Below are positions 22,663-60,507 of a stretch of 64,000 bases of DNA, in pieces (positions within the stretch are counted from its first letter, which is position 1; each line of letters begins with the position of its first letter). The DNA is taken from positions 134,383 through 198,382 of the forward strand of contig JBIQKJ010000004.1 of NCBI GenBank assembly GCA_044506615.1, written 5' to 3'. The notes beneath the pieces were generated by a model. It did no database searches. It was given only the letters and a program-made list of their open reading frames with translations, and was not told the origin of the DNA. The position numbers and the translations under genes are program-made. This DNA is from Chloroflexota bacterium (GTDB lineage: Bacteria; Chloroflexota; Limnocylindria; Limnocylindrales; CSP1-4).

Positions 22663-22673
22663 CGGCGCTCGAC

Positions 22674-38036: not shown

Positions 38037-38387
38037 ATCGCCACGATCGTCGATCAGCCCGACGAGCTTCGGGCGCTCCGCGCGTTCCACAAGACGCTCG
38101 CCGACGTCAACCGCCTGCGGATCGTCCAGCGGCTCGCCGGCGGCGACGCCAGCGTGACCGAGCTCATCGACCACGTCGGGCTGAGCCAGCCGCTCGTCAG
38201 CTGGCATGTCGGCAAGCTGCGCGACGCCGGTGTCGTCGAGACGACGCGGATCGGCCGCGAGACCGTGTGCCGCCTCAACACCGACGCCTTTGCCGAGTTC
38301 GCCGCCCGGGAGCGCGCGGTCCTCGGACTCGATGCCCAGCGGCCGAACCCGCTCGCTCGACCCGCGACCGACCGGGCCGCCTCGTGA
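38037..38387 (+). CDS. ArsR/SmtB-family winged-helix transcriptional regulator (start codon unresolved)
   Basis: The in-frame translation ...IVDQPDELRALRAFHKTLADVNRLRIVQRLAGGDASVTELIDHVGLSQPLVSWHVGKLRDAGVVETTRIGRETVCRLN is a complete ArsR HTH. The frame is open from 37944 but has no ATG/GTG/TTG before GTG 38154, which lies inside the HTH. See the corresponding finding. Confidence 0.6.
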   Translation: MATIVDQPDELRALRAFHKTLADVNRLRIVQRLAGGDASVTELIDHVGLSQPLVSWHVGKLRDAGVVETTRIGRETVCRLNTDAFAEFAARERAVLGLDAQRPNPLARPATDRAAS

Positions 38388-39016
38388 CCGGCTCGCTGGT
38401 GACCCCCGAGTTCCGCAGCCGCGTCCGCGGTCTGGCCGTGCCGGTCGCCACCGCGCTCGGCCGGCTCGGGCTGACCCCGAACGCGCTGACCGTCATCGGC
38501 TTCCTCGGCACGTGCGCGGCCGCCGCAGCGGCTGCGACCCAGGCCTGGGCCCTCGCCGGCGTCCTCGTGATCGCCTTCGGGATCTTCGACCTCTTCGACG
38601 GGGCGCTCGCACGCGCCACCGGCCGGGCGACGCGCTTCGGCGCCTTCCTCGACTCGACGCTCGACCGCACCGGCGAGAGCCTCGTCCTCGCCGGCGTGGC
38701 CGTCGGGTGCGCGGCGAGCGGCTTCCTCGAGGGCACGCTCCTCGCGGGGACCGCTGCCACGTTCGCGTCCGGCGTCACGTACACCCGCGCGAAGGCCGAA
38801 TCGATCGGTCTCCACGGCGAGGTCGGCGTCGCGCCGCGACCCGAGCGGCTCGTCATCCTGGCGGCCGGGCTCGTCCTCGCCGGCGCGCTGGCCGCCGACA
38901 CCGGCGCCACCGCGCTCGCGATCGCGCTCGGGCTCATCACCATCCTCTCAGCCATCACGGTCCTCCAGCGGATCGTCCACGTGAAACACCAACTCGGACA
39001 GGAACAGCAGGGTTAG
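38384..39016 (+). CDS. pgsA: CDP-alcohol phosphatidyltransferase, phosphatidylinositol-phosphate synthase-like
   Basis: 210 aa with a GTGA overlap to the ArsR gene. The motif [27 protein letters not shown] matches D(x)2DG(x)2AR...G(x)3D(x)3D. Its position directly upstream of ino1 supports inositol-1-P as substrate. Confidence 0.8.
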
Positions 39017-39035
39017 CAGGAGCGACGGAGAGCAC

Positions 39036-40301
39036 ATGGCAGGCAACGGCAAGAACGGCAGCAGCGCCAACGGCAGCACGCCGAGCAACACCTGGGCGGG
39101 CAGCGCCCGACGCAAGGACGGCAAGATCCGCGTCGCGATCGTCGGCGTCGGCAATTGCGCGAGCAGCCTCGTCCAGGGCCGCTACTACTACGAAGACGCG
39201 AAGGAGACCGACTTCGTCCCGGGTCTCATGCACGTCAACCTCGGCGGCTACCACGTCCGCGACATCGAGTTCGTGGCAGCCTTCGACGTCGACAAGAACA
39301 AGGTCGGCAAGGACCTGTCCGAGGCGATCTACACGAAGCCGAACAACACGTACGTCTTCCAGCAGGTCCCGAACCTCGGCGTGAAGGTCGAGCGCGGCAT
39401 GACCCACGACGGGCTCGGCAAGTACCTCAGCCAGATCATCGAGAAGGCCCCGGGCCCGACCGCCGACGTCGTCGGCATCCTCAAGGAGCGCGAGGTCGAC
39501 GTGATGGTCTCGTACCTCCCGGTCGGCTCCGAGGAGGCGACCAAGTGGTACGTCGAGCAGGCCCTCAAGGCCGGCGTCGGGTTCATCAACGCCATCCCGG
39601 TGTTCATCGGCCGCGAGCCCTATTGGCAGCGCCGCTTCGCCGAGGAAGGCCTGCCGATCATCGGTGACGACATCAAGAGCCAGGTCGGCGCCACGATCAG
39701 CCACCGCGTGCTGACCCGCCTGTTCATGGACCGCGGCGTCCGGCTCGATCGGACCTACCAGCTCAACTTCGGCGGCAACACGGACTTCCTCAACATGCTC
39801 GAGCGCGAACGCCTCGAGTCGAAGAAGATCTCGAAGACCAACGCCGTCACCTCGATGCTCGATTACGAGCTCGAGGACGACGACGTCCACGTCGGGCCGT
39901 CGGACCACGTGCCGTGGCTCCAGGACCGCAAGTGGTGCTACATCCGGATGGAGGGCACGACCTACGGTGACGTGCCGCTCAATGCGGAGCTCAAGCTCGA
40001 GGTCTGGGACAGTCCGAACAGCGCGGGCGTCATCACCGACGCGATCCGCTGCCTCAAGCTCGGTCTCGACCGGGGCCTGAGCGGCACGCTCGTCGCGCCG
40101 TCGAGCTACTTCATGAAGAGCCCCCCGCAGCAGATCCACGACGACATCGCGTTCAACCGCGTCGAGGCGTTCATCCGCGGCGAGGACACCGAGACGCTCG
40201 TCGGCACCGAAGCGCCCCAGAAGCGGCAGCTCCGGAAGCTGGCCTCGACGAAGGCCAGCCCCGAGCAGGTCGCGACCCGGACGACGGCCGCCGCGAAGTG
40301 A
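39036..40301 (+). CDS. ino1: myo-inositol-1-phosphate synthase
   Basis: 421 aa. [16 protein letters not shown] (NAD site), [38 protein letters not shown]. These match the bacterial/archaeal MIPS pattern. Confidence 0.9.
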
Positions 40302-41341
40302 CGTCGCGCGAACGCGAGCTCGAGGCGCCCCACCGGCGCCTCGAGCCGGGCCCGCGCATCCTCGAGAAGACGGCCGTCCTCGGCTACCGTGCCGCGGAGG
40401 CCGTCCTCGGATTCCTGCCGCCGGGTCCGCCGCGCTGGATCCTGGGACGCCTCGCGCAGGCCTCGTACCTGCTCTGGCCGACGAAGCGGCGCTGGTCGAA
40501 CCGGAACTTCGGGCACGTGCTCGGCCTGCCCCCGAGCGACCCGCGGGTGCGCCGGCTCGCGCTTCGCGCGTACGCCGAGTACGGCCGCTACCTGACCGAG
40601 CTGCTGCGTCTGCCGTCGCGCGACGCGGCCGAGATCGACCGACTGGCCGGCGACCTCGACGCCGACGAGGTCATGCGCCTGCTTCGGTCCTCGCCGGGCG
40701 GGCTGATCCTGGCCGCCGCGCACGTCGGCAACAACGAGGCCGTGGCTGCGTCGATTGCCCGGCACGGGCTCCCGATCAGCGTCGTCGCCGACGACTCCTC
40801 GTTCCCCGAGCTGTTCGAGCACCTCCGCCGGCAGCGCGAGGGGTGGGGGATCAGCGTCATCGCGTGGCGCAACCTGCGCGGGATCTTCGGCGTCCTCCGA
40901 CGCAAGGAGATGCTTGCGCTGCTCGTCGACTGGGGGTACCGGTCGGACGGGATCCCGGTCCAGCTGTTCGGCGCGTGGACGGCGCTGCCCGCCGGCCCGG
41001 CCACGCTTGCGGCGAAGACGGGTGCGCACATCCTGTCGATCCAGATGGGCAGGCGGCCGGACGGCACCTTCGGCGTGACCTGGCGCGAGCCGGTCGTCGT
41101 CGCATCCAGCGACCCGGCTGAGCTCCAGCGGGCGACCCAGCAGCTCGCCGACGAGCTGGCCGACACGATCCGCCGCGCGCCCGAGCAGTGGTACAGCTTC
41201 AAGCCGATGTGGCCGTCCTCCCCCGATGAGGCCGCCGACCTCGAGCGCCGGGCGCGGATCATGCAGTCGGGTCGACCGGATCCCGGTCCGGACCGGCGAC
41301 GCCGACGCGATCCGGCCGAGCTGGCGGTCGAGGGCGCATGA
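40298..41341 (+). CDS. lysophospholipid/PIM acyltransferase (LpxL/HtrB/PatA family)
   Basis: 347 aa with a GTGA overlap. The family pattern includes AAHVGNNE (HxxxxD/E-like region), LVDWGY and the C-terminal [12 protein letters not shown]. Confidence 0.7.
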
Positions 41342-42330
41342 CCCGCGCGCGGGGAACCGTCGGGCAGCGGATCCGGGCGTGGCTGGTCGCGCTCGTGTCG
41401 GCGCTCGTCGTGCGCCTGCCCGAGGGTCCGCTCACCCGCCTCGCCGAGCTCGGCGGGGAGCTGTGGTATCGGCTCGCATCGGCCCGCGCAGCGCAGGCCC
41501 GGCGCAACCTCCGGCGCGTGGCACGCAGCCTCGCCCACCGCGATCTCGGCTCGCCGCTCGTGCGCGCCGCCGCGACCGACGACCGTGCGCTGGAGCGGCT
41601 CGTCCGCGCCGCCTTCCGCCACAACGCCCGCTACTACCTCGAGGTGGCGCGCGTCCCCGCGCTCCGCGACCGGGACATCGACCAGCGCGTCCTGATCGAG
41701 ACGCCCGACACGGTCGCGGCAGCGTTCGAGAACGACCGCGCCGTGATCTTCGTCGGGCTCCACTTCGGCGCCATCGAGCTCCCGGCGCGCTTCCTCGCCG
41801 CCCGCGTCGGGCAGGCGGTCGCTCCCATGGAGACGATCGGCGACCCGGCCCTCCAGGCGTGGTTCGTCCGCACCCGGGGCGCAAGCGGGATCCGGATCGT
41901 CGGGCTCCGCGAGGCTCGCCGGGAGCTCCTCGCCTCGCTGCGAAACGGCGTCTCGGTCGGGATCGTCGGCGACCGCGATCTGACCGGCGGCGGGCTGCCC
42001 GTGCCGCTGTTCGGCGCGCCGGCGGACGTGCCGCTCGGCCCGGCGATGCTCGCCGTCGAGAGCGGCGCGCCGGTGTTCGTGGCCGGGGTCCGCCGAGCCG
42101 GCGTGGGCCGGTACCGCGGGCGCCTCGAGCCCGTCGCCGTCCCGGCGGACGGCACCCGCCGCGAGCGGGTCGTGGCGACCACGCGGGCGATCGCCGCGGC
42201 GTTCGAGCGGATCATCGCCGATGCGCCCGAGCAATGGTGGGCGGTCTTCTTCCCGATCTGGCCGGACCTGGAGGCGGCCGAGGCCACGCCCGCGCCCCGG
42301 GCGACGGTCGCCGGAGAGCACGGCCGATGA
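41338..42330 (+). CDS. second LpxL/HtrB-family acyltransferase (paralogue)
   Basis: 330 aa with an ATGA overlap. GLHFGAIE, IVGDRDL and the C-terminal PEQWWAVFFPIWP parallel the preceding gene. Confidence 0.7.
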   Translation: MTRARGTVGQRIRAWLVALVSALVVRLPEGPLTRLAELGGELWYRLASARAAQARRNLRRVARSLAHRDLGSPLVRAAATDDRALERLVRAAFRHNARYYLEVARVPALRDRDIDQRVLIETPDTVAAAFENDRAVIFVGLHFGAIELPARFLAARVGQAVAPMETIGDPALQAWFVRTRGASGIRIVGLREARRELLASLRNGVSVGIVGDRDLTGGGLPVPLFGAPADVPLGPAMLAVESGAPVFVAGVRRAGVGRYRGRLEPVAVPADGTRRERVVATTRAIAAAFERIIADAPEQWWAVFFPIWPDLEAAEATPAPRATVAGEHGR

Positions 42331-43196
42331 CGCAGGGGACCCCCGCCACGACCGCGACGAGCACGGCCACGCCGACCGGCAAGGCAGACCTCCATCTGCA
42401 CACGCTGGCCTCGGACGGGACGGTCGGCGTCGGGGCGATCCTGGACCATGTCGAGCGGACCGACCTCGACGTCATCGCGATCACCGACCACGACCGGATC
42501 GACGCCGCGCTCGTCGGACGCCGCATGGCGGCCGATCGCGGGCTGCGCGTCGAGGTCGTCGTCGGCGAGGAGGTCACGACGCTGGGCGGCCACCTGCTGG
42601 CCCTGTGGGTCGATCGGCGCATTCGACCGCTGCGCACGCTGAGCGCGACGATCGCCGAGATCCACGACGCCGGGGGGATCGCGATCCCGGCTCACCCGCT
42701 GGTCCCGTACCCGTTGTGCGCGCAGGGCTGGGTCCTCCGCGGCCTCCTCGACCGCTCGGATCCGCGCTTCCGGCCGGACGCCCTCGAGACGTTCAACCCG
42801 ACGATGCTCGGTCGCCCCTGGCACACGCGGGTCGTGCGCTTCGCGGAACAGCACGGTCTCGCGATGGTCGGCAACAGCGACGCGCACGCGCTCCCTGCGA
42901 TCGCTGCGGGCTGGACGGAGTTCCCCGGCACGACCGCCGCCGAGCTGCGGCGGGCCATCGAGTCCGGCGCGACGCGGCATCGCGGCTCGTTCCACGGCTC
43001 GGCCGGGCAGCTCCGAACGTTCGGGCAGCAGCTCCGCAAGTACGGCCGCGACGCCCGCGCCGAGCTCGCGGGACGAGTCCGGCGCGACGGCACGGGCCGC
43101 GATCTCGGCTATCCCGGCGGACACCTCCGCCCGGTCCGCGAGCACGGCGGCGGCCTCGAGCCGGGCCGGGACGAGGAGCGGGAGGGGGCGCGATGA
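42327..43196 (+). CDS. PHP-domain metal-dependent phosphoesterase
   Basis: 289 aa with an ATGA overlap. ADLHLHTLASDGT, IAITDHD, IPAHP and GNSDAHA form a histidine/aspartate pattern typical of the PHP (polymerase and histidinol phosphatase) superfamily. Confidence 0.75.
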   Translation: MTQGTPATTATSTATPTGKADLHLHTLASDGTVGVGAILDHVERTDLDVIAITDHDRIDAALVGRRMAADRGLRVEVVVGEEVTTLGGHLLALWVDRRIRPLRTLSATIAEIHDAGGIAIPAHPLVPYPLCAQGWVLRGLLDRSDPRFRPDALETFNPTMLGRPWHTRVVRFAEQHGLAMVGNSDAHALPAIAAGWTEFPGTTAAELRRAIESGATRHRGSFHGSAGQLRTFGQQLRKYGRDARAELAGRVRRDGTGRDLGYPGGHLRPVREHGGGLEPGRDEEREGAR

Positions 43197-44515
43197 AGAT
43201 CGGTCTCGTCTGCCCGTACATCTACCCCGAGTCGGGCGGCGTCGCCCAGCACGTCGGGTACCTCTACGACAACCTGCGGCTGCGCGGCCACGACGTGCGC
43301 ATCATCACGGCCTCGCACGGCCCGCAGCGGGCATCCGAGGGCGACGTGATCCGGCTCGGCGTCGGGTTCTCCGTGCCGACCAACGGCTCGGTGGGGACGC
43401 TGACGTTCTCGCCGCGCTACCTGTCCCAGATCCGGGACATGCTCGAGCGCGAGCGGTTCGACCTGCTCCACTTCCACGAGCCGTTCGTGCCGTTCCTGTC
43501 GCTCTTCCTGCTGCGCGAATCGCGCAGCGTCAACGTCGCCACGTTCCACGCCTACGCCGGCTTCTCGCCCTCCTACGAGTTCGGCCGGCGCTTCCTCGGC
43601 GGGTACGCTCGGCGGCTCCACGGACGCATCGCGGTCTCGGCCGCCGCGCGCCACTTCATCGACCGCTTCTTCCCGGGCGACTACAAGGTCATTCCGAACG
43701 GGGTCGACGTCGACCGGTTCCAGCGGGCCGTGCCGCTCGCGAAGTGGCAGGACGGGACGAAGAACCTGCTGTTCGTCGGGCGCCACGAGCCGCGCAAGGG
43801 ACTGCTCGACCTCCTCAAGGCGTACCGGATCCTGCGCAAGACCGGCTGCGACTGCCGGCTGCTCGTCGTCGGGAGCGGGCCGCAGGAGCGCGAGGCCCGG
43901 CGATACGTCGCCACCCGCCGCCTCAGCGGCGTGGAGTTCCTCGGGCGCGTGAGCGACAGCGAGAAGGCCCAGCTGTTCCGGACCGCCGACGTCTTCGTGT
44001 CACCGGCGACCGGCGGTGAGTCGTTCGGCATCGTCCTGCTCGAGGCGATGGCCGCCGGCGCGCCGATCGTCGCGTCCGACATCCACGGCTACAAGGGCGT
44101 CGTCCGTCGCGGGCGCGAAGGTCTGCTGGTGCCGCCCCGCCAGCCGAAGCCGTTGGCCGCGGCCATGGCGAAGCTTCTCGGCGACGACGACCTCCGCGCG
44201 CGGATGAGCGAGAGCGGCACCGAGCGGGCGGCCGAGTTCAGCTGGCCGCGGATCACCGAGCGGGTCGAGGCCTACTACGGATTCGTCATTCGCCGGCTGG
44301 CGGCCGCGGACGCGCTCCCGCCCGGGTTCACCGCCGAGGTGCCGCCCAAGCCGGCGTCCCCCGAGCAGCTGCGGCTCATCGACGCCGCGGCGCTGCGGGC
44401 GACCGAGCCCGGGGGCCCAGCCGGCAGGACCGAGCCGGTGCCGCCCGCGACCGACGGCTCGGGGCCGGTCGACCCGGTCCGGGATCTGACCCGAACCTCC
44501 TCCGACGACCGCTGA
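43193..44515 (+). CDS. pimA: GT4 glycosyltransferase, phosphatidylinositol alpha-mannosyltransferase-like
   Basis: 440 aa with an ATGA overlap. MKIGLVCPYIYPESGGVAQHV, GRHEPRKG, and ESFGIVLLEAMAAGAPIV (E(x)7E). It has an approximately 70-aa Pro-rich C-terminal tail. The pimA assignment rests on context with pgsA and the acyltransferases. Confidence 0.75.
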   Translation: MKIGLVCPYIYPESGGVAQHVGYLYDNLRLRGHDVRIITASHGPQRASEGDVIRLGVGFSVPTNGSVGTLTFSPRYLSQIRDMLERERFDLLHFHEPFVPFLSLFLLRESRSVNVATFHAYAGFSPSYEFGRRFLGGYARRLHGRIAVSAAARHFIDRFFPGDYKVIPNGVDVDRFQRAVPLAKWQDGTKNLLFVGRHEPRKGLLDLLKAYRILRKTGCDCRLLVVGSGPQEREARRYVATRRLSGVEFLGRVSDSEKAQLFRTADVFVSPATGGESFGIVLLEAMAAGAPIVASDIHGYKGVVRRGREGLLVPPRQPKPLAAAMAKLLGDDDLRARMSESGTERAAEFSWPRITERVEAYYGFVIRRLAAADALPPGFTAEVPPKPASPEQLRLIDAAALRATEPGGPAGRTEPVPPATDGSGPVDPVRDLTRTSSDDR

Positions 44516-44557: not shown

Positions 44558-47500
44558 TCAGCCGGGCGCGGGCCCGGCGCTGCCGACCGTGGCATCGATG
44601 CCTCGCTCGCCGGCCGCCCGCTCCGCCTCGACGATCCGCCAGGACCATGCCGAGTAGGCCACGACGAGACAGGTGATCGCCACCGCCGCGAGCAGGAGCG
44701 CGAGCATCGGCGTGAACAGCGGCGTGACCGCGTTGCGCTCCGCGGTGTTCACCGGGAAGTCGAAGTAGTAGAGGTACGTGGGCAGCAGGCCCTGGTACGC
44801 GTTGACCACCGCCGACGGCAGCCGCAGCCCCGAGATGTTCGGGTAGAACGCGACGAACGTGGCGACGACCGCCACGAGCAGCCCGCCGACGAACCGGCGC
44901 GGATCCCGCGCCCGCAGCACCTGCAGCGCGAGCCAGCCGAGCGGGACCGCGACGACCAGCGCGATCGGCTCGACCGGGACGTTCTCGAGCCGCAGCAGCT
45001 CGCCGTCGCCGACGAGCGCGACTCCGAGCATCGCGACCGCGACGATCGCGGCGGTCACACCGAGGCGAAGGAGCGAGCCGGTCGGCGACCCGTCCCGGCC
45101 GCGCCCCCCGAGCAGCAGCACCTCGCGGATGAGGAACAGCCCCCCGAGCACGAGCACGGCCGCGAGCAGCGCGGTCCGGGCGGTCAGCACGAAGCTCGGG
45201 ATGAGCTCGGGGCAGGCCGGTCCGGGTTCCACGCCGACCGCCCAGCACAGCGGCCGCGACAGCAGGTGCAGTACGGCCGGCGCGACGATGGCCGCCGCAG
45301 CAGCGGCCTTGGCGAGAAGCCACGTCCGGCGCGACGGACCGTGCCACAGCTCGGCGACGAAGTAGGCGAGGGCGAGGATCACGAACGGCAGCGCCGTGTA
45401 GTAGTGGTACTGGAACGCCGCCCGGTCGATCCTGGCCCACGGCACCCATTGCGCCGCAAAGCCGATCGCGATCAGCGCGAGCGCGAGGCTGCGTCGCCGA
45501 TACGCCTGCCACGCCACGAACGCGAGCGCCGGCACCCCGATCCACCAGATCACGAGGTTGCCCGCGTCGTAGATCGACGCCGCGGTACCGGTGTCGAAGC
45601 TCTCCTGGTAGAACCAGACCGGCTTCAGGTTGAACGGCCACGCCCACCACGGCGAGGACGCCGCGTGCTCGGCGGTGAGCTGGTCGTGGTAGCGGTACAT
45701 CTGGGCGGTCAGGTCGGCCAGCGTCTGGCCGGTGTGGCCGGCCGGGAAGCCGGCGATGATTCGGTGGTTCTCGATGGCCGCCCATGGCAGGTACGACGCG
45801 ACGTAGATCGCGAGGGGGATCACGACGAGCGAGATCGCGGCCCACACGAGCGGCAGCCCGAGGAGCCAGCCCGGTCGCAGCCAGGCGGTCGGTGGCGCCG
45901 CCGGCGGATCGAGCAGCCGCACCGGGTCGTCGGGGGCCGGCACGCGTGCGAGCGGCCCGAAGCCGGCCCGGCCGGCCACGACGAACAGCCCGTACACGAC
46001 CGGCGCGAGGATCGCGAGCACGAGCGCCACCTCCAGCGGCGTCACCTCCAGCGGCCCGACCGCGACGGGCTGGGTCTCCCGCCCGAGCGCGAGGGCGCCG
46101 AAGAAGACGACGACCGCTCCCGCCGCGGGCGCGAGCACCGCGAAACGGAACTCGTCGGTGGACCAGGCGATGGGGTGCGTGACGGTCACGACCACGGCGA
46201 CGAGCGTGAGCGCGACCATCAGCAGCAGGAACGGCACGTTCCCGAAGCCGGCCTGCCCCTCGGGGACGCTCATCGCCATGTAGCCGAGGACGACCGTGAT
46301 CCCGACGAGACCGGCGATCGCGACGATCCGCCCGAGCGCGCTCCGCACGAGCAGCAGGAGCGCGATCGCCCCGATCGAGTAGGCGGCGATCCACTTCGTC
46401 GCGAGCGCCAGCCCGAGGAACATGCCGACGATCGGGAGCAGGACCCAGAAGGCCCAGCGCCCTCGCCAGCGTTCCGTCCAGAGCAGCGCGAACACGACGT
46501 AGGCGGCAACGAGGCACAGGCCGAGCACCGCGTCGATCATGCCGATCCGCGAATGGGCGAAGAGCATCCCGTCGAGCAGCGCGAACGCGCCGGCAAGGAC
46601 CGCGACGTCGCGGCGCCGGAAGAGGATCCGTGCGAGGAGGTAGAGCAGCCCCGCCATCAGGGCCCCGGCGACGACCCCCGGCAGCCGCCAGGCGAACGGG
46701 TTGCCGCCGATCTCGACGGTCGCGACCGACCCGGCCTCGTCCCCGGCAAAGGCGAGGAGCTGTTGGCGGTCGCTCTGCGGGCGCTCCGATGCGATGTCCC
46801 AGGCGAGCGCCGAGGGCTCGAAGGGCAGCACGGCGTCGGCGTAGGGCGCGTTGGCGTGCGGCTCGATCACGTAGACCGTCCAGCCGGCGCCGTCCTGGGT
46901 GCGCCCGAGCACGTGGACCATCTCGGTCGCGTCGTTGAACGCGATCCGGGTGCCGGGTCCGGGCAGGAAGTTCGTGCTGGCGATCTCCGGCGACGTCGCC
47001 TCGTCGCCCCCGAGCGAGACGACCGTGAACGAGGGATCGTCGGGCGGGCCGGTCGTCGCGTACAGCTGGTCGCTGTCGACGTGCACGCGGGTCAGGCCGT
47101 GGGCTCCTCCGGCGATGTCCAGCCGGGCCACCTCGGCGGCGCCGGCGACCTCGAGGAACACGATCCCGTCCGTGCCCGCGACCGCGATCCTGGCCAGGTC
47201 GGCGACCTCGATCCCCGGCAGCTCGCCGGCCGCGATTGCTTCGTCGATGTCGGTGCGCGCCGCATCGTCGGGGATCCCGGTGATGACGGTGCTCGCCTCG
47301 CCCAGCGCGAGCCGCTCCTCGTAGTCCGCCGCGTCGCCGCCGAGGATCTCGACCAGTCGCTGGGCGGCGGCGGCCGGATCGGGGACGTCGCCCGGCGTCG
47401 ACACGACCGCGGGTCCGGTCCCGGCCTCGGCGAGGTCTGCCAGGCCGGCCACGGAGGCCGACGCGAGGACCTCTCCGCTGTCGCGGTCGAGGATCGCGAG

Positions 47501-49957
47501 CTCGTCGCCGGACGCGGCCACGAGCGTCGTCCCGTCCCCGGTGGCGAGGAGGTGATCGACCGGTTGCCAGGTCGCGACGAGGAACGGCTCGAGCGGCGCG
47601 CCGCCGTCCGCCGCCGCGAGGTCGACGCCGTACAGGTCGCCGTCGGCCGTCCCGACGAACAGCTGCCGGAGCTCGTCGTCGAGCGTGAGCGCGCGCGGCT
47701 GCGCGACGTCGAGCGTGGCGATCAGGTCGCGCGACGCCAGGTCGTAGACGCGCAGCCCGTCGTCGGCGGCGACGTACAGGCGGTCGCCGACCTCCTGCCC
47801 GCTGCCGAACGGGTCGGTTCGTCGGGGCTCGACGAGCGCGTCGAAGACCGGCGAGCCGACGGCGCTCGTGGCGCTGACCCGGTTGTCCCCGAGCAGCGCG
47901 ATCCCGCCGGCCAGCACGTACTTGCCGAGGTGCGGGTGCGTCCACTCGTAGATGTCCTGCGATTCGCCGTAGCGCCAGACCTGGAGGAACTCCGCCGCGG
48001 TCTGGACGTGGTGCACCTCGTCGAAGTGGAAATGCGGCGGCTCGCCGAGCCGGAACGTGCGGAGGACGAGCGTGGCGACCACGAGCACGATGAGCAGCCA
48101 GACGTCGAGCCGGTCGATGCGACCGCCACCCTCACGCCTGAGCAGGAGGCTCCGGTCCGCCCGGATCGAGGGACCTGCCAGCCGGTCGAGGCGATCGTCG
48201 GCCGTCCGCCGCCGCGCGGCGAGCGGATCGACCGCCGCCGGGAGCGGATCGAGCGCCGGGCCCTCCGCCGCGCCGGGGCGCATCGTCGTGGGCGACGCCG
48301 GCTCGTCGTCGGGAGGCGGGGCGGTTGTCAGGCGCATCTCCGGCGGGGCGACCACCGCAGGGCGGTGCGGCGCGGCCTCGTGGCCCGGAGACGCGTCGCC
48401 GGGGGCCGCGGGCGCGTCCTCGGACAGCGGCTCCCGCGCGCCGGCCTCGGCAATCTCGTCCGCGAGGCGCTCGCGGCTGTCGGCGCGGAGCTGGGCGAGG
48501 CCCCAGGCGAACGCCACGAGATGGACCATCGCCACGATCGTCACGCCCGGCGCCGAGCGCAGGGCCTGCCCGATGCCCAGCCAGTCGACGACGCCGACCG
48601 CGCTGTGATCGAAGAGCGTCGTGAGGACCACGTACAGGTTCGCGAACGTCGCCGCCGACAGGACGACGTAGGCGAGCCGCCAGCGGATCGAGACCGCGGC
48701 GAGGATCGCGCCGAGCGCGAAGAACGGGAACATGTAGCGCTCGTGCACGCGGGTCGGGACGACGAAGAACGCCATCGCGAGCAGCGCGAGACCGACGAGC
48801 AGCGTCGCCCGGTCGGGCGAACGGGCGACGAGCCACAGCACGAGCGCGATCGACGCGAGCAGCAGCGTCGTGCCGACGAGCACCGCGGGAATGGGACCGA
48901 ACGTGACCGTGCCGGTGCTGCACCGGTCGCCGCCGCTGTCGTTCGGCGCGACGTTCGGGGTGTCGCAGATCCAGTACCCGTCGGCGGCCAGGCTGTAGCC
49001 GAGGTCCCCGGGGATCAGCGCCCACGGGTTGTAGGCGTTGACGGTCGTGTACGGATAGCCGCCGGCGGCCACGCCGACCTGCTCGAGCAGCCCCGAGCGA
49101 ATGAACGGCGCCTCGGGCGACGGCTCCACCACCGACAGCCCGAACGGCGCCGCGAGCACGACCGCGGTCACGAACCCCGCCAGCGCCGTCGTCAGGATGC
49201 GGACCGGTCGGTCGGTTCGGCGCTCCCAGGCACGGAACCGCTCCCCGGCGCCCGCGCCGGGAGGGGTGGCCGGGCGCTCGGGCGGCGGATCGTCGCCGTA
49301 GGCACCGCGCGGCCACAGCGCGCGGCGGATCGTGACGACGGCCACGAGCGGTACGAGGATCCCGAGCTGCGGCTTGATGATCGCCGCGGCCACGGTCAGG
49401 ACCGCCGCGCGCTCCGGCCGGTCGCGCCACAGCTCGCGCAGCGCGAGCAGGAGGAACACCGCCCCGAACGCGTCGACCTGGCCCCACACGGCGCTGTCGA
49501 ACCAGGTGACCGGATTGAGCACGACGAGGGCGGCGCCGAGGAGCGCGACTCCCTGGCGCGCGCCGAGCTCGCGAGCCATCGACCAGACCAGCCAGCCGAG
49601 GGCCGCGTCGGCGAGGATCGCGGGCAGCTTGACGAGGTCGCCGATGCCCCCGATCGCGCTCCCGACGACGCCGACCAGCCACAGCACGTAGAGGTAGCCC
49701 GGCGTGTAGTCGGCGAAGGCGACCCGATCGTAGAAGCCGTACGGCCCGCCGGCCGCCAGCTCGGCCGCCCACGCCCGGAACGAGACGACGTCGGTGATGA
49801 ACCCGGAGCCGGGCAGCAGGACGTATGCAATGATGAATCGGAGGGCGAGCCCGATCGCGAGCACGACCGCGACCGCGGCGACGGCCCCTGGGATCCCGGC
49901 AGACCGTGACGACGTTCGCGCGCTTCGCTCGGTCCCACCCCTGGCGGGGCCAGTCAC
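44558..49957 (-). CDS. 1799-aa polytopic membrane protein fusing two GT-C glycosyltransferase modules: an N-terminal GT-C domain (family not assignable by eye) and a GT39 protein-O-mannosyltransferase-like domain carrying a beta-propeller-like insert of about 390 aa
   Basis: Lower 1799 codons of ORF 44558..51748, with GTG at 49957. Module 1 (about aa 1-495): FADYTPGYLYVLW, KLPAILADA, WGQVD. A Pro/Ala linker follows (about aa 495-610). Module 2: FHFDEVHHVQTAAEFL, EWTHPHLGKYVLAGG, then repeats such as LYVAADDGLRVYDLASRDLIATLDV and LFVGTADGDLYGVDL, then AWRLPGVVAGALMAGLLYLLARILF, HSRIGMIDA, and the C-terminal SSPWWAWPFNLKPVWFYQ (PMT C-terminal 4-TM region). No stop codon separates the modules. 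Confidence 0.7.
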   Translation of the reverse strand: MTGPARGGTERSARTSSRSAGIPGAVAAVAVVLAIGLALRFIIAYVLLPGSGFITDVVSFRAWAAELAAGGPYGFYDRVAFADYTPGYLYVLWLVGVVGSAIGGIGDLVKLPAILADAALGWLVWSMARELGARQGVALLGAALVVLNPVTWFDSAVWGQVDAFGAVFLLLALRELWRDRPERAAVLTVAAAIIKPQLGILVPLVAVVTIRRALWPRGAYGDDPPPERPATPPGAGAGERFRAWERRTDRPVRILTTALAGFVTAVVLAAPFGLSVVEPSPEAPFIRSGLLEQVGVAAGGYPYTTVNAYNPWALIPGDLGYSLAADGYWICDTPNVAPNDSGGDRCSTGTVTFGPIPAVLVGTTLLLASIALVLWLVARSPDRATLLVGLALLAMAFFVVPTRVHERYMFPFFALGAILAAVSIRWRLAYVVLSAATFANLYVVLTTLFDHSAVGVVDWLGIGQALRSAPGVTIVAMVHLVAFAWGLAQLRADSRERLADEIAEAGAREPLSEDAPAAPGDASPGHEAAPHRPAVVAPPEMRLTTAPPPDDEPASPTTMRPGAAEGPALDPLPAAVDPLAARRRTADDRLDRLAGPSIRADRSLLLRREGGGRIDRLDVWLLIVLVVATLVLRTFRLGEPPHFHFDEVHHVQTAAEFLQVWRYGESQDIYEWTHPHLGKYVLAGGIALLGDNRVSATSAVGSPVFDALVEPRRTDPFGSGQEVGDRLYVAADDGLRVYDLASRDLIATLDVAQPRALTLDDELRQLFVGTADGDLYGVDLAAADGGAPLEPFLVATWQPVDHLLATGDGTTLVAASGDELAILDRDSGEVLASASVAGLADLAEAGTGPAVVSTPGDVPDPAAAAQRLVEILGGDAADYEERLALGEASTVITGIPDDAARTDIDEAIAAGELPGIEVADLARIAVAGTDGIVFLEVAGAAEVARLDIAGGAHGLTRVHVDSDQLYATTGPPDDPSFTVVSLGGDEATSPEIASTNFLPGPGTRIAFNDATEMVHVLGRTQDGAGWTVYVIEPHANAPYADAVLPFEPSALAWDIASERPQSDRQQLLAFAGDEAGSVATVEIGGNPFAWRLPGVVAGALMAGLLYLLARILFRRRDVAVLAGAFALLDGMLFAHSRIGMIDAVLGLCLVAAYVVFALLWTERWRGRWAFWVLLPIVGMFLGLALATKWIAAYSIGAIALLLLVRSALGRIVAIAGLVGITVVLGYMAMSVPEGQAGFGNVPFLLLMVALTLVAVVVTVTHPIAWSTDEFRFAVLAPAAGAVVVFFGALALGRETQPVAVGPLEVTPLEVALVLAILAPVVYGLFVVAGRAGFGPLARVPAPDDPVRLLDPPAAPPTAWLRPGWLLGLPLVWAAISLVVIPLAIYVASYLPWAAIENHRIIAGFPAGHTGQTLADLTAQMYRYHDQLTAEHAASSPWWAWPFNLKPVWFYQESFDTGTAASIYDAGNLVIWWIGVPALAFVAWQAYRRRSLALALIAIGFAAQWVPWARIDRAAFQYHYYTALPFVILALAYFVAELWHGPSRRTWLLAKAAAAAAIVAPAVLHLLSRPLCWAVGVEPGPACPELIPSFVLTARTALLAAVLVLGGLFLIREVLLLGGRGRDGSPTGSLLRLGVTAAIVAVAMLGVALVGDGELLRLENVPVEPIALVVAVPLGWLALQVLRARDPRRFVGGLLVAVVATFVAFYPNISGLRLPSAVVNAYQGLLPTYLYYFDFPVNTAERNAVTPLFTPMLALLLAAVAITCLVVAYSAWSWRIVEAERAAGERGIDATVGSAGPAPG

Positions 49958-49981: not shown

Positions 49982-51445
49982 GTGAAGGTGGATCGGAGCG
50001 TAGCACAGGGTCGGGCGCACGACGCCCGGTCGACCGAACGGACGGACGCGCACGGAGCGGCCTGGATCGCGGCCGCGATCGGCGTCGGTTTCATGGTGCT
50101 CGCCCTCGCGATCTACTCGCGGACGTTGGTCGAGCGGCCGTACGACCACTTCGTCTGGCAGGCGGCGGCCTACCTCGAGGGGCAGGTCGCGATCCGCTAC
50201 CCGACGCCGGACAACTGGTACTTCCAGGACGTGCTGCCGGTCGAGACCGCCGACGGTGTCGAACGGGGGCTCATCCCGTTCCCGCCATTGCCGGCGCTCC
50301 TGCTGCTGCCGTTCGTGGCGCTCCACGGCCTCGCCACCGACGACCAGCTGCTGTTCGTGGTGCTCGGTGCGGTCGACGTCGGGCTCTGCTGGTGGATGCT
50401 CGGGCGGCTCCGGATCCGCCCGGCGATCCGGATCGCGACGACCGGGTTCTTCGCCTTCGGCACCGTCTTCTGGTATACCGCGCAGCTCGCGACCACCTGG
50501 TACCAGGCGCACGTCGTCGCGGTCGGGCTCGCGATGCTCGCGATCGGCGTCGCGCTGGGCGGTGACCGCGCCGCCGCCGAGCCCGAGGTGGACGCGACGG
50601 AACCCCGCGACGCGCTCGCCGCGATCGCCCGTGACCGCCTCGCGGTCGACCCGCGCCAGTTCGCCGCCGGACTGCTCTTCGGGCTGGCCTGCACGGCCCG
50701 CCTGACGGTCGTGTTCGCGGCGCCGTTCTTCATGCTCGTCGGGAGCGGCGGCTCGTGGTGGCGGCGCAGCTGGTCGGCGGGGCTCGGTGCCGCGATCCCG
50801 GTCGGCGCGCTCGTCGCGTACAACCTCGCCACGACCGGGCACGTCTTCCACCCGGCGTACGAGGTGCTCTACGCGCTCGAGGCCACCTTCTACCCGACGC
50901 TCGGGTACAACCTCGACTGGGGCATCGAGGACCCGCGCTACATCCCGCAGAACCTCGGGATCATGCTGTTCTCGGCGCCGGACCTCCTTCCCGCAGCGGT
51001 CCCGGACTCGCTCGCGGTCGACCCGGTCCCGTACTGCACGGAGCCCGGCGCGGTGCGCGGGCTCTTCGACGCCACCTGCCCCCTCGCCGTGCCCCGCGAC
51101 GTCGGCATGAGCGTGCTGCTGACCTCGCCCGCCTATCTGCTCGTGCTGCCGGCGCTCCTCGGCCATCGCGGCAGCCGGCTCGCCGCCGGCGCGTTCGTCG
51201 CGGTCCTGCTCGTGGCGCTCGTGAACCTCATGCACTTCAGCCAGGGCTGGGTCCAGTTCGGCTACCGGTTCAGCAACGACTTCGCGCCGTGGGCACTGCT
51301 GCTGGTCGCGCTCGGGGCGGAACGGCTGGCGGCACGCGATCGCGGCGGCCCCGGTCCGGGACTGGCGCTCGTCGCGACGCTCGTGCTGGCCTCGGTCCTC
51401 GTGAACACCTGGGGCGTCGTGTGGGGCAACCTGCTCGGATGGTGA
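49982..51445 (+). CDS. GT-C fold glycosyltransferase (ArnT/PMT_2-like polytopic membrane protein)
   Basis: 487 aa with 10 or more TM segments. It has an early periplasmic-loop acidic motif region (YFQDVLPVE...PFPPLPALLLLPF). It is divergent from the giant gene, with only 24 nt between the starts, so the start is uncertain (GTG at 49982 or 49988). Confidence 0.6.
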   Translation: MKVDRSVAQGRAHDARSTERTDAHGAAWIAAAIGVGFMVLALAIYSRTLVERPYDHFVWQAAAYLEGQVAIRYPTPDNWYFQDVLPVETADGVERGLIPFPPLPALLLLPFVALHGLATDDQLLFVVLGAVDVGLCWWMLGRLRIRPAIRIATTGFFAFGTVFWYTAQLATTWYQAHVVAVGLAMLAIGVALGGDRAAAEPEVDATEPRDALAAIARDRLAVDPRQFAAGLLFGLACTARLTVVFAAPFFMLVGSGGSWWRRSWSAGLGAAIPVGALVAYNLATTGHVFHPAYEVLYALEATFYPTLGYNLDWGIEDPRYIPQNLGIMLFSAPDLLPAAVPDSLAVDPVPYCTEPGAVRGLFDATCPLAVPRDVGMSVLLTSPAYLLVLPALLGHRGSRLAAGAFVAVLLVALVNLMHFSQGWVQFGYRFSNDFAPWALLLVALGAERLAARDRGGPGPGLALVATLVLASVLVNTWGVVWGNLLGW

Positions 51446-52995
51446 GCCCTCCACGCTGGGTCGCGCCCGTCGCCGTCGGCCTCGCGGCGTTCGTGCTGGC
51501 TCGCTGGACGCTGCTCCCCGGGGTCGCCTTCTGGGACACCGCGGAGCTGCAGGCCGTCGCACCGCTGATGGGAACCGCGCATCCGACCGGCTTCCCGACA
51601 TACGTCGTGCTCGGCTGGCTGGCCTCCGTCGTGCTCCAGCCGTTCGGTGAGCCGGCGTTCCGGATGAACCTGTTCTCCGCGCTGTCGGTTGCGGTCGCGG
51701 CCGCCGTGACGGTCGACCTCGTCCGGGCCCTGACGGGGTCCCGTGCAATCGGCATCGCCGCCGGGCTGGGGCTCGCCGTCACCCCGGTGGTCTGGGACAA
51801 CGCCACCCACGCCGAGGCCCACACGCTGCACCTCGCGCTGGTCGCGATCCTCCTGCGGCTCCTTGTCGGATGGGAGGACCGCCGGCGCGCCGCTGACCCG
51901 GACGCCCGTGCCGGCGCCGATCGCTGGCTGGCGGCGGCGGCGGTCGTGTTCGGCCTGTCGCTCGGCAACCACTCGCTGACGCTGCTGCTGGCGGTTCCCG
52001 TCGGCCTGTTCGTCCTCGCGGTCGAGCCCGGCATCGTCGGCCGGCCGCGGTTCATCGCGGCCTGCGCGGCGGCGCTCGCGGCCACGGTCGTGCTGGTGTA
52101 CCTCGAGCTCCCGCTGCGGGCCGGGCCGTTCCGGGCCCCGCTGGTCTACGGTCGACCCGAGACCTGGGACGGCTTCTGGTACATCGTGCTCGCGGAGCAG
52201 TTCCGCGGCAGCCTCAGCGCGCCGTTCGCCGACATGGCCGGCAAGGTGGCCGCGCTCGTCGACCGAAGCGTCGGAGCGTTCGGCCCACTGACGCCGCTCG
52301 TGCCGCTCGGGCTCGCGGCGACGGTCGTGGTCCGGCCGCGGTACGCGCTCCTCACCGGTCTCGGGGCGCTCATCACGGTCTTCTTCGCCGCGTCCTACGA
52401 CAACGCCGCGATCGAGCGGTACGACCTGGGGCCGATCCTGTTCGCCTGGACGTGGCTCGCGATCCTCGCCGCGTCGGCGGCCGGCCTTCTCGCCCGGGCG
52501 TGGCGCGGCGGCATCCGCCGGGAGGAGCCGCGGGGTCAGTGGCGGCCGGCGCTCCCCGCCGGCGGGGTGGCGCGGGTGCTCGTCGCGACGCTGCTCGTGC
52601 TGGCGGTCCTGCCCGGCGTGCCGCGGACGTTCGAGCGCGTGGATGCGAGCGGCGACCGCCTTGCCGAGCGCTGGCTCGACGACGTCGACGCGGCGCTCGA
52701 GCCGAACGCGGTCGTCGTGAGCTGGTGGAGCTTCTCGACTCCGCTATGGTACGCGCAGCACGTCGAGGGCCGGCGACCGGACATCGAGATCATCGACGAT
52801 CGAACCCGTCTCGATCGCGACCTCGGGTCGGTCGCGGACGTGATCAACGCGCACCTCGGCGCGCGGCCCGTCTACGTGATCCGCCCGGCGAACGAGCTGG
52901 CGGCGCTCGAGGAGGACTACGTCATCGAGTCGATCCATGTCGGCATGCCGGACCCGCTCGCCCGGGTGCTCGCACGACGCGAGGCCGGCTCATGA
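51442..52995 (+). CDS. DUF2723 / TMEM260-like GT-C glycosyltransferase
   Basis: 517 aa with a GTGA overlap. The N-terminal signature is GVAFWDTAELQAVAPLMGTAHPTGFPTYVVLGW. It is polytopic with a C-terminal soluble domain. Confidence 0.7.
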   Translation: MSPPRWVAPVAVGLAAFVLARWTLLPGVAFWDTAELQAVAPLMGTAHPTGFPTYVVLGWLASVVLQPFGEPAFRMNLFSALSVAVAAAVTVDLVRALTGSRAIGIAAGLGLAVTPVVWDNATHAEAHTLHLALVAILLRLLVGWEDRRRAADPDARAGADRWLAAAAVVFGLSLGNHSLTLLLAVPVGLFVLAVEPGIVGRPRFIAACAAALAATVVLVYLELPLRAGPFRAPLVYGRPETWDGFWYIVLAEQFRGSLSAPFADMAGKVAALVDRSVGAFGPLTPLVPLGLAATVVVRPRYALLTGLGALITVFFAASYDNAAIERYDLGPILFAWTWLAILAASAAGLLARAWRGGIRREEPRGQWRPALPAGGVARVLVATLLVLAVLPGVPRTFERVDASGDRLAERWLDDVDAALEPNAVVVSWWSFSTPLWYAQHVEGRRPDIEIIDDRTRLDRDLGSVADVINAHLGARPVYVIRPANELAALEEDYVIESIHVGMPDPLARVLARREAGS

Positions 52996-53759
52996 CGGCC
53001 CGGGTCCCGCGGCTGTCGTACTTCTTCCCGGCGCACAATGAGGAGGCCAACCTCGCGGCGCTCGTCGAGGAGGCCCTGGCGACGCTTCCCGGGCTGGCCG
53101 ACGCGTTCGAGATCATCGCGGTCGACGACGGCTCGAGGGACCGCACGGCGGCAATCGCCGAGGAGCTGGCCGCGGCACATCCCGGGCTCGTGCGGCTCGT
53201 CCGCCATCCCGTCAACCTCGGCTACGGCGCGGCGCTGCGCTCGGGGCTCGCGGCCTCGCGCTACGAGCTCGTGGCGTTCACGGACGGGGACCGCCAGTTC
53301 AGGGTGGAGGACGTCGGCCGGCTGCTCGAGCGGCTGGCCGCGCCCGACGCTCCCGACGTCGTCGTCGGCTTCCGCATCAAGCGCGCCGACCCGCTGATCC
53401 GGACCCTCTACGCGCGGCTGTACCGCCTCGCGAACCGGATCTTCTTCGGTCTCCGGGTCACCGACGTCGACTGCGCCTGCAAGGTGTTCCGGCGCGAGGC
53501 GCTCGACGGCATCCGGGTCGAGTCCGGCGGGGCCTTCTTCTCGGCCGAGCTCCTGATCAAGCTGCGCGCGGCCGGCCGGTCCGTCGTGGAGGTGGGCGTG
53601 CCGCACTACCCGCGGACCGCCGGGTCCCCGACGGGCGCGAAGCCGTCGGTCGTGCTCCGGGCGGTGAAGGACTTCTGGCTCACGCGCGTCCGGATGTGGG
53701 CGAACCGGCGACGGGCGCTGCGCCGCGGCGAGCCGATCCTGGGCGGCCCCGCGACCTAG
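52992..53759 (+). CDS. GT2 polyprenyl-phosphate glycosyltransferase (Ppm1/DPM1/ArnC-like)
   Basis: 255 aa with an ATGA overlap. SYFFPAHNEE, IIAVDDGSRDRT, FTDGDRQF, DVDCACKVFRR. Confidence 0.85.
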   Translation: MTARVPRLSYFFPAHNEEANLAALVEEALATLPGLADAFEIIAVDDGSRDRTAAIAEELAAAHPGLVRLVRHPVNLGYGAALRSGLAASRYELVAFTDGDRQFRVEDVGRLLERLAAPDAPDVVVGFRIKRADPLIRTLYARLYRLANRIFFGLRVTDVDCACKVFRREALDGIRVESGGAFFSAELLIKLRAAGRSVVEVGVPHYPRTAGSPTGAKPSVVLRAVKDFWLTRVRMWANRRRALRRGEPILGGPAT

Positions 53760-57412: not shown

Positions 57413-57742
57413 TTATACGCGGGGCGGGTTGCGCCGGACGCGGATCCGAAGCTCGCGCACCCCGACGCCGCCGGGTGCCGCGGCAAAGGCCGCGAGCAGC
57501 TCGGTCGAGCGCAGCCGGAGCTCCTGGGCGACGATCGGCGCGTCGGTCTCGACGTCGAGCGCGAAGCCTTCGATGCCCACCACCCGACACGCGCCGCTGG
57601 CCGCCGGGACGCGCTCCTCGACGAGTGCCTCGAACGTGGCAATCGCTCGGGACAGCCGGAGCTCGTCCTCGAGCCCGAGCGCCCGCGCGGTCTCCGGCAT
57701 GAGGTCGCCGATGCGGACCATCGGCCGTCGCCGCGAGCTCAC
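57413..57742 (-). CDS. dciA: DUF721 protein (DciA-type helicase-loader family), conserved downstream of recF
   Basis: 109 aa with a GTGA overlap to the recF stop. The pattern GDLMPETARALGLEDELRLSRAIATFEALV...VVGIEGFALDVETDAPIVAQELRLRSTELL matches DUF721, and the recF-DUF721 synteny is typical of Actinobacteria. Confidence 0.65.
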   Translation of the reverse strand: MSSRRRPMVRIGDLMPETARALGLEDELRLSRAIATFEALVEERVPAASGACRVVGIEGFALDVETDAPIVAQELRLRSTELLAAFAAAPGGVGVRELRIRVRRNPPRV

Positions 57743-58896: not shown

Positions 58897-58920
58897 GACC
58901 GACTCCCCGTCTGCGTGCCC

Positions 58921-60039: not shown

Positions 60040-60507
60040 GTCGGGTTCACTCCACGCTTCGCGGGACGGGACGGACGGCGCTCGCGGGCGGCCGGGTCGG
60101 GGGGTGTTCGGACGGGATCCGGCCGGCGCCGATTCGTTGGTGGGTATCTTCTCTCTATCTTCTCACCCCGTCATCACCGTCATCATGGTGTGGATCGCGT
60201 GGATGCCGAGCGAGCGCCGTGCACGACGGGACGGTGGACGACCGCCCGCCGTCCGTGGATGACGCCGGGGACAGCGGGGAGCGTGTCGGGGAGTCGGTGT
60301 GGGCAGGCCCGGCGCGCCCGGTTGCGACGCGTGGAAGGGCCGTCGCCTCGTGCACCGGGCCCGGCCGGCGCTCCACGCCGGGACGGTGGACCTGTCCACA
60401 ATGCGGGATGGTTTTCCACGGATTCCCGGTGGTTATCCACACCTGCAGGGATCGGGCGGACCGGGATCGGGCGGATTCGAGGCGCGTGACAGGCCCACCC
60501 CCGGCCG
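60040..60507. promoter_or_regulatory. oriC candidate (dnaA-dnaN intergenic region with a DnaA-box cluster and a short AT-richer element)
   Basis: A perfect TTATCCACA at 60433-41. Variants: CTGTCCACA 60392-400, TTTTCCACG 60412-20, and on the other strand TGTGGATCG 60189-97, GCGTGGATG 60197-205 and CCGTGGATG 60253-61. The AT-richer stretch is tatcttctctctatcttctc (60145-64). A direct repeat GGATCGGGCGGA x2 lies at 60449-60 and 60464-75. Confidence 0.75.
60433..60441 (+). promoter_or_regulatory. consensus DnaA box TTATCCACA
   Basis: Exact match to the canonical 9-mer, read directly from the sequence. Confidence 0.85.

Follow-up and report, generated by a model that had tools for sequence, protein, structure and literature searches.

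The protein O-mannosyltransferase (PMT) of M. smegmatis, Pmt, has been co-purified with homologues of three further proteins, Rv0051, Rv3212 and Rv1209 (bioRxiv 10.64898/2026.07.15.738315, July 2026). In that preprint, Rv0051 (ML2687c/Rv0051) is described as GT87-like and without catalytic residues, although full Pmt function requires it; Rv3212 is an eight-bladed β-propeller of the periplasm that AlphaFold3 puts directly over the Asp-Glu (DE) site of Pmt, an arrangement that the authors liken to the MIR domains of eukaryotic PMTs; and Rv1209 is DivIVA-like. Two questions stood open in 2025 (PMC12331936), one on whether a bacterial PMT requires a partner to dimerize with and the other on what takes the place of the MIR domain of eukaryotes; both have since been answered for mycobacteria by interaction predictions and one pull-down (bioRxiv 10.64898/2026.07.15.738315). 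The same preprint cites some Paenibacillus GT39 enzymes that are fused to a GT87 enzyme (UniProt V9WAU2), and PimE and other GT87 enzymes are reported to elongate O-mannose chains in actinobacteria (PMC12757957). Here we compare with these systems a single gene, referred to below as the giant gene, in a 64,000-nt stretch of DNA (the window) from a Chloroflexota bacterium of the order Limnocylindrales (GenBank assembly GCA_044506615.1, contig JBIQKJ010000004.1, positions 134,383 to 198,382). The giant gene joins a GT87-like module, a PMT module of the GT39 type and a propeller-like insert in one frame, and on balance we lean towards the view that it encodes a single-chain version (a holoenzyme) of the bacterial protein O-mannosylation complex. 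An earlier reading made from the letters of the window (the original prediction) had presented the product as an unusual machine: its form is indeed unusual, whereas the mycobacterial Pmt complex and the Paenibacillus GT87-GT39 fusions, both reported in 2026, provide precedents, and the giant protein is better understood as a one-chain form of the mycobacterial Pmt complex rather than a machine of a new kind.

The giant gene lies at 44558..49957 on the minus strand and consists of 1799 codons plus a stop, with the frame uninterrupted throughout. It starts with GTG at 49957, in agreement with the conserved N-terminus of its homologues (consensus MTGP..GG.ERGT). As the G+C content of the window is 73% and long open frames are cheap at such a composition, the length of the frame alone is no evidence of a gene. 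Codon-position composition was therefore followed along the sequence: G+C at third codon positions (GC3) was 0.90-0.99, and at second positions (GC2) ~0.5, in every 300-nt window of the giant-gene frame from ~49950 to 44558, and the linker stretch at 48470-48115 showed a GC3 of 0.91-0.94 in the same frame. The open frame and the continuity of GC3 bear out the single 1799-aa frame that had been predicted. Upstream of ~50100 the high-G+C codon position switches to the pattern expected for a divergent gene on the plus strand, and a mechanical extension of the open reading frame (ORF) by 597 codons upstream to 51748 was rejected as a high-G+C artefact on account of this change. An ORF of 1547 aa on the opposite strand (45266..49909) was likewise discarded as spurious. 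A protein identical to that of the window is present in public collections (P0001). The protein is divided as follows (aa, amino acids; TM, transmembrane).

48473..49957, minus strand: module 1, aa 1-495, a polytopic GT-C module, GT87-like (Pfam, Foldseek, conservation).
48158..48472, minus strand: linker, aa 496-600, rich in Ala/Pro/Asp/Glu/Arg (composition, identity, GC3).
47888..48157, minus strand: N-terminal part of the PMT module, aa 601-690, with TM1, the DE motif and juxtamembrane helices (IYEWTHPHLGKY) (Pmt4 alignment, conservation).
46703..47887, minus strand: insert, aa 691-1085 (~395 aa), predicted extracytoplasmic β-propeller (AlphaFold2 model, Foldseek, Pfam).
47407-47213, minus strand: helical sub-insert within the propeller, aa ~851-915 (AlphaFold2 model).
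45233..46702, minus strand: resumed PMT core from TM2 onwards, aa 1086-1575, including PMT_4TMC (Pfam, Pmt4 alignment).
44561..45232, minus strand: C-terminal extension, aa 1576-1799, with 5-6 further TM helices (hydropathy, invariant columns).

This anatomy agrees throughout with the one first proposed: a pair of GT-C modules joined by a Pro/Ala linker, a DE motif within the first external loop, a soluble β-rich insert that breaks up this loop, and a PMT core that resumes together with its 4-TM region. All of the quoted motifs were located (ADYTPGYLYVLW at aa 82-93, WGQVD at 158-162 and FDEVHH at 645-650), as were the strand-repeat motifs of the insert; GACGAG at 48022-48017 encodes D646-E647, and the insert placed at ~47890-46720 corresponds to aa 690-1080. 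While the modules named in the original prediction all stand, it had overlooked the additional TM bundle at the C-terminus as well as the operons on either side of the gene, which bear on the substrate.

The giant protein is a real, conserved fusion. A search of 5.8 billion proteins returned 1374 matches at E<1e-5, of which the best 120 were full length without exception (120/120; 1639-1862 aa, 54-70% identity), most of them covering ~99% of the query. When one genome per species of the Genome Taxonomy Database (GTDB) was scanned, at least 592 species genomes were found to encode a relative, and the best 80 species matches spanned residues 1 to ~1790 of the window protein. The genomes are nearly all metagenome-assembled (MAGs) and carry the label Chloroflexota, ‘uncultured Chloroflexia’ or Candidatus Limnocylindrales, a few of them being probably mis-binned. 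In the corresponding loci, one per species, a single open frame of at least 1700 codons was present in 80/80, and the module-1 motif and the PMT motifs lay in the same frame, 503-586 aa apart, in 75/80. Homologues with the same fusion, which the original prediction had proposed to look for, thus exist in numbers, and the hidden stop or frameshift that it had feared in the linker is absent, as judged by GC3 continuity, the full-length homologues and the single frames. In the literature on glycosyltransferases, O-mannosyltransferases or β-propeller fusions of Limnocylindria/Chloroflexi, we found no description of this protein family.

The PMT module is recognizable on both sides of the insert. 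The Pfam model PMT (PF02366) matched two stretches that flank it (42-43.6 bits against a cut-off of 22.7), the match beyond the insert aligning aa 1085-1204 with profile positions 80-198, and PMT_2 likewise scored above threshold; PMT_4TMC (PF16192) matched at aa 1413-1573 (61-63 bits against a cut-off of 32.4). Both PF02366 and PF16192 were matched by 11/11 family members examined. In a profile search of PDB sequences, yeast Pmt4 was aligned on both sides of the insert, its VVFDEVHF with FDEV645-648 and its residues 140-251, from TM2 onwards, with the segment that follows the insert. This alignment puts the insertion point within external loop 1, past the juxtamembrane helices but ahead of TM2, with ~46 residues of the yeast loop corresponding to ~438 in the giant protein. 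The DE motif is conserved in essentially all of the 81 sequences over which residues were counted (D646 81/81, E647 80/81; different species, 46-59% identical overall), and the N-terminal part of the PMT module shows a mean pairwise identity of 76%. Hydropathy gave ~17-19 TM segments for the PMT part, including the 224-aa C-terminal extension, compared with the canonical 11-TM core, the TM model being of low confidence. No MIR domain was matched by Pfam in the giant protein at E up to 10, and its sole soluble domain is the propeller in loop 1. The C-terminal extension contains the near-invariant motifs EPI, YPN and YQG.LPT.LY.F.FP, and it matched no known family, with a sub-threshold match to DUF4229 only. 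A conserved pair of cysteines, Cys1571/Cys1582, is found near the end of the PMT core, just before the extension.

AlphaFold2 modelled the insert as all-β, with ~32 strands at a pLDDT (predicted local distance difference test) of 75-90 and a small helical sub-insert. The alignments available for modelling were shallow (14 sequences for module 1 and 11 for the PMT part with insert, 55-80% identity), and in the model of the PMT part (mean pLDDT 58.7) only the propeller was confident. When the insert was compared with the PDB by Foldseek, 801 matches were obtained at E<1e-3; the best 50 of these were dominated by β-propellers (WD40 proteins, YncE, BamB), with TM-scores normalized to the target of up to 0.75, and the Pfam model PQQ_2/BamB was weakly matched in 4/11 members. 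The estimate of ~32 strands suggests 7-8 blades. Spliced into the external loop 1 that carries the DE motif, the propeller must, judging by connectivity, sit on the outer face of the membrane beside the PMT active site. The insert is strongly acidic (73 D/E versus 21 K/R) and, at 52%, its identity is below that of the modules, although a WTVYVxEPHxNAxYAD motif near its C-terminal end is near-invariant. A profile search of 1.84 billion representative proteins yielded 912 insert relatives at E<1e-3. Among the best 150 of these (to E 1e-33) nearly all were family members, fragments or architectural variants, and two were long repeat proteins, one from Flagellimonas. In a profile search, the region of the sub-insert (aa ~845-940) matched residues 73-165 of 4ovd_A, a PBP-like protein deposited as ‘peptidoglycan glycosyltransferase’ (E 9e-5); this match may reflect a shared small α/β module, or chance.

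Module 1 was assigned by its Pfam matches, its fold and its residues. It carries D56, D83-YTPGY, WGQxD162, K195-PQ and TRVH405-ERY, and each of the residues D56, F60, D83, Y84, Y88, D117, D154, W158, Q160, D162, K195, Q197, H405, E406 and Y408 is present in 80-81/81 sequences. The Pfam model GT87 (PF09594) matched aa 84-205 of the window protein marginally (26.0 bits against a cut-off of 25), and at E<0.01 it was matched by 12/14 family members (best E 7.7e-7); occasional weak matches to Alg6_Alg8, PIG-U and a mannosyltransferase family that uses dolichyl-phosphate mannose (Dol-P-Man) were also seen in the family, the Alg6_Alg8 model weakly covering aa 358-439, within which H405 lies. The AlphaFold2 model of module 1 was poor (mean pLDDT 56.5, predicted TM-score 0.57); its best Foldseek match was glycosylphosphatidylinositol (GPI) mannosyltransferase I with Dol-P-Man (9wno, E 1e-4, TM-score 0.44/0.52), followed by PIG-U, with OST/STT3, PglB and Pmt4 lower in the list. 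No PDB chain was matched by module 1 at E up to 10, either with the 14-sequence profile or with a single 702-aa homologue from a related clade (see below). On the evidence of this model, module 1 has a GT-C fold, and the possibility that it is not a glycosyltransferase, which the original prediction had raised against itself, is contradicted by the GT87 matches and by the likeness to GPI mannosyltransferase I and PIG-U. As regards the GT-C subclass, the best fold matches of this poor model are GPI mannosyltransferase I and PIG-U, whereas GT87 has been placed in GT-C_A (PMC12041525).

The essential residues of PimE are D58 at the tip of juxtamembrane helix 1 (JM1), Y62, K195 (which contacts phosphate) and H322, and the PIG-U entry 7WLD is given as a structural relative of PimE (PMC12041525). 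Akin to PimE, module 1 matches the GT87 model, has PIG-U as a structural neighbour and presents an Asp ~10 residues past TM1, an aromatic residue four positions on, Lys195 and, within VHERY, a His, an order that makes it suggestive to regard D56, K195 and H405 as counterparts of PimE D58, K195 and H322. Module 1 differs from PimE in that its GT87 match is marginal, its periplasmic loop (aa 280-352) is longer and the residue four positions past the Asp is Phe (F60) where PimE has Tyr62. As the candidate Asp, Lys and His are kept in 80-81/81 sequences, module 1 is probably catalytically active. The linker that follows is the only poorly conserved part of the giant protein (mean pairwise identity 31%, as opposed to 68-76% in the modules) and varies in length from 67 to 129 aa, always in frame; it is probably disordered and cytoplasmic, and its variability has the look of a flexible tether.

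Additional information on the two halves came from relatives in which they are apart. Proteins of 1424-1507 aa among the relatives found with the insert profile comprise the PMT module and the propeller without module 1. At one such locus (L082), where the synteny is the same on both sides, a gene for a 702-aa module-1 protein overlaps by 11 nt a gene for a 1439-aa protein of PMT module plus propeller (P0171, L082:10001-14320). At 41% identity to module 1, the 702-aa protein retains GFPND, WGQAD, TKLQLG and TRAHERY, while P0171 is 38-41% identical to aa 600-1799, with the C-terminal extension kept as well. Stand-alone module-1 homologues of ~610-700 aa were also found, on contigs of up to 3.7 Mb and, where named, from Limnocylindrales or Chloroflexota. 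The split genes of L082 and the stand-alone homologues indicate, on sequence grounds, that the two halves are separable partners that were fused or split during evolution. In P0171 the sub-insert (aligned to aa ~845-900) is expanded by a long stretch rich in Ser/Thr/Pro. Such stretches in actinobacterial proteins typically bear O-mannose, and by analogy the one in P0171 could be a site of self-glycosylation.

The neighbourhood of the giant gene bears on the substrate, and its features are as follows.

49982..53759, plus strand: divergent operon encoding a 487-aa polytopic protein, a 518-aa TMEM260-like/PMT_2 GT-C and a 255-aa GT2 (Pfam, NCBIfam).
38384..44515, plus strand: convergent operon of six genes (Pfam).
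55038-57302, minus strand: 754-aa protein between the rhomboid gene and the DciA gene (gene call).
57413-61866, minus strand: dnaA (60508-61866), dnaN, recF and a DciA-family gene (gene calls).

The start codons of the divergent operon and the giant gene are 24 bp apart. TMEM260 is a protein O-mannosyltransferase in animals (PMC10214176). The 487-aa polytopic protein has no Pfam family and a faint match to a putative glycosyltransferase family; it is probably a further GT-C, which would bring the locus to four GT-C modules, two in the giant protein and two in the divergent operon. For the 255-aa GT2 the best NCBIfam matches are polyprenyl-phosphate-sugar synthases. Beyond this operon follow BFN, a rhomboid gene, the gene for the 754-aa protein (no Pfam family, a faint match to PP2C phosphatases only; conserved in 58/80 loci), DciA, recF, dnaN and dnaA. 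The arrangement on the divergent side recurs in ~60/80 loci, and that on the dnaA side is conserved across related loci; the replication origin probably lies near ~62 kb, with the glycosylation locus next to oriC.

Of the six products of the convergent operon, one is a CDP-alcohol phosphatidyltransferase that resembles synthases of phosphatidylinositol (PI) or PI phosphate (PIP). The other five are an inositol-1-phosphate synthase, a pair of PatA/HtrB-type acyltransferases, a PHP phosphoesterase that may be a PI-phosphate phosphatase, and a PimA-like GT4. The genes for these five were present in 48/48 loci whose flanks were complete, the one for the PI-synthase-like protein was present in 42/48, and L082 shows the same gene order. 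Early synthesis of phosphatidylinositol mannosides (PIMs) in Actinobacteria employs PgsA1, Ino1, PatA and PimA, and the convergent gene set parallels this pathway, which suggests PIM-like glycolipids in Limnocylindria. No report of protein O-mannosylation or of PIM-type glycolipids in Chloroflexota (class Limnocylindria) was found in the literature searched. Farther away in the window, a complex I (NADH:quinone oxidoreductase) operon occupies 13596-28732 on the plus strand. Its protein in the NuoG position (881 aa, 20017-22662) combines Fer2_4, Fer4 and a pyridine-nucleotide-disulphide oxidoreductase (GltD-like) domain, which is unusual for NuoG, and a GT20 gene resembling trehalose-6-phosphate synthase (28854-30497, plus strand) directly follows the operon.

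If the giant protein is indeed a one-chain O-mannosylation complex, the neighbouring GT2 would load mannose onto polyprenyl phosphate at the cytoplasmic side of the membrane; after this lipid has been flipped, the PMT module would initiate by moving mannose onto Ser/Thr of exported proteins. The propeller would cap the active site and select or hold the acceptor (an acceptor gate), the role that has been proposed for mycobacterial Rv3212 and for eukaryotic MIR domains. The GT87-like module, an obligate partner on this view, would lie packed against the PMT module in a pseudo-heterodimer comparable to Pmt1-Pmt2 or Pmt-Rv0051, and would probably add further mannose, as PimE (GT87) does for mycobacterial O-mannosyl chains; the fusion would make the stoichiometry and the proximity of the parts obligatory. 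The original prediction had likewise spoken of a substrate-recognition propeller, of which the fold and the position in loop 1 are supported by the model and the Pmt4 alignment, while the selection of acceptors is a role that the propeller may have. A complete machine, in which two GT-C sites work (the PMT module initiating and the GT87-like module elongating), the propeller selects acceptors and the polyprenyl-phosphate-mannose pool is common with the adjacent PIM pathway, is a tentative proposal.

Several points weigh against an O-mannosylation complex. All members of the family come from uncultured MAGs, and their activity, acceptor and sugar are predictions from sequence. The PMT module scores 48.6 bits where the NCBIfam Pmt equivalog NF058602 has a cut-off of 800 bits, and by sequence it is a distant superfamily relative with extra TM helices, below the level of an orthologue. 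In both AlphaFold2 models the TM parts have low confidence (pLDDT 30-70), and that the modules pack together and that the propeller lies over the DE site is deduced from connectivity; the insert resembles the Rv3212 propeller at the level of fold and position only; and the putative correspondence of D56/K195/H405 to PimE rests on the order and spacing of motifs. The mycobacterial GT87-like partner, moreover, has been reported to be non-catalytic (bioRxiv 10.64898/2026.07.15.738315). Finally, the invariant synteny with the PI/PimA-like operon fits a lipid acceptor equally well.

This synteny keeps a glycolipid role alive as the main rival, in which one or both GT-C modules act on PI-anchored mannolipids (PIM- or lipomannan-like) of the flanking operon: module 1, PimE-like, would extend a flipped PI-mannoside with polyprenyl-phosphate-mannose, and this glycolipid would also be the one that the PMT-like module and the propeller elongate or handle. 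The constancy of the flank (inositol-1-phosphate synthase, two PatA-type acyltransferases, PHP phosphoesterase and PimA-like GT4 in 48/48, PI/PIP-synthase-like gene in 42/48), its parallel to early PIM synthesis, the two further GT-C genes and the GT2 on the other side, and a PMT module far under the Pmt equivalog cut-off are all as such a machine would have them, and GT87 includes a lipid mannosyltransferase, PimE (PMC12041525). However, neither the 4TMC region, which is specific to PMTs, nor the DE motif has been lost, the large propeller on the acceptor side parallels the protein-directed mycobacterial complex, and the neighbourhood indicates a shared pathway or donor rather than the identity of the acceptor. 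Every characterized GT39 enzyme, to our knowledge, glycosylates Ser/Thr of proteins. We consider a glycolipid machine rather unlikely.

A second alternative is compatible with the O-mannosylation complex and concerns module 1 alone, which might be a non-catalytic scaffold (Pmt2- or Rv0051-like) that stabilizes the PMT module or recruits the acceptor, leaving a single active site. The original prediction's processive or substrate-channelling enzyme is one of two readings. In favour of a scaffold are the mycobacterial partner, ML2687c/Rv0051, which is described as devoid of catalytic residues although Pmt cannot function fully in its absence, and the marginal GT87 score of module 1 (26.0 against 25). 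That module 1 is such a scaffold appears doubtful in view of D56, D83, D154, D162, K195, H405 and E406, which are maintained in 80-81/81 sequences only 46-59% identical and are also kept in the split-clade homologue: so strong a conservation of polar residues in membrane-surface loops is to be expected of an active site, although it is no proof of catalysis. That a missed stop or frameshift has turned two ordinary adjacent genes into one is scarcely credible, and we rejected it together with the notion of a spurious long ORF, for although the low-complexity, G+C-rich linker is the likeliest place for errors and a related clade truly has two genes, GC3 does not fall below 0.91 in the single frame that runs through the linker, 80/80 loci from different species and assemblies keep the frame of at least 1700 codons (75 with both motif sets in frame), and the best 120 homologues all measure 1639-1862 aa.

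The family offers independent ‘Rosetta stone’ support from evolution for the very recent mycobacterial model, with GT39 enzyme, GT87-like partner and propeller forming one protein in hundreds of Chloroflexota species, and the sister clade adds to this support by encoding the partner as a separate, overlapping gene. The giant protein also is a single-polypeptide target for the structure of the whole assembly, and D56, K195 and H405 on the one hand and D646 and E647 on the other offer a clear mutational distinction on the matter of catalysis by the partner. The invariant flanking genes, which serve the making of inositol phosphate, PI and polyprenyl-phosphate sugars as well as acyltransfer and include a PimA-like GT4, suggest that abundant uncultured bacteria of soil and freshwater build envelope glycoconjugates based on mannose, of a type linked until now mainly with Actinobacteria. 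Should the two-site machine with its adjacent PIM pathway prove true, the actinobacterial Pmt complex and its link to PIM/lipomannan would trace to an older envelope module shared within Terrabacteria, and the fused form would be the simplest object for solving the structure of the complex.

Among the known systems, the eukaryotic PMT1-PMT2 and PMT4 enzymes (GT39; PDB 6P25, 9E61, 9I5K) share with the window protein the GT-C fold, the DE motif in loop 1, PMT_4TMC, two GT-C units side by side and a soluble luminal domain near the active site. They differ from it in that the partner is a second GT39 and not GT87-like, the soluble domain is a MIR β-trefoil in loop 5 and not a propeller in loop 1, and the subunits are unfused. 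Paenibacillus V9WAU2, compared here by the description in the preprint only, likewise has a GT87-family module and a GT39 module in one polypeptide. The mycobacterial complex around Pmt (Rv1002c, GT39) has the same three kinds of component: its GT39 enzyme carries a DE motif, the partner is a GT-C protein of the GT87 type, and the propeller, of ~400 aa, lies on the outer face close to the active site. A small DivIVA-like bridging subunit (Rv1209) is part of that complex, whereas no such gene was noticed among the gene calls of the window locus; the GT87-like part of the window protein keeps conserved candidate catalytic residues that Rv0051 is said not to have; and the window protein, from the phylum Chloroflexota, has an extra C-terminal TM bundle. 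While Rv3212 is a separate, membrane-anchored protein, the propeller of the window protein lies within external loop 1. Three of the four component types of the mycobacterial complex are thereby united in one chain, the association of GT39 with GT87 being in cis in the window protein and encoded by adjacent overlapping genes in the clade of L082.

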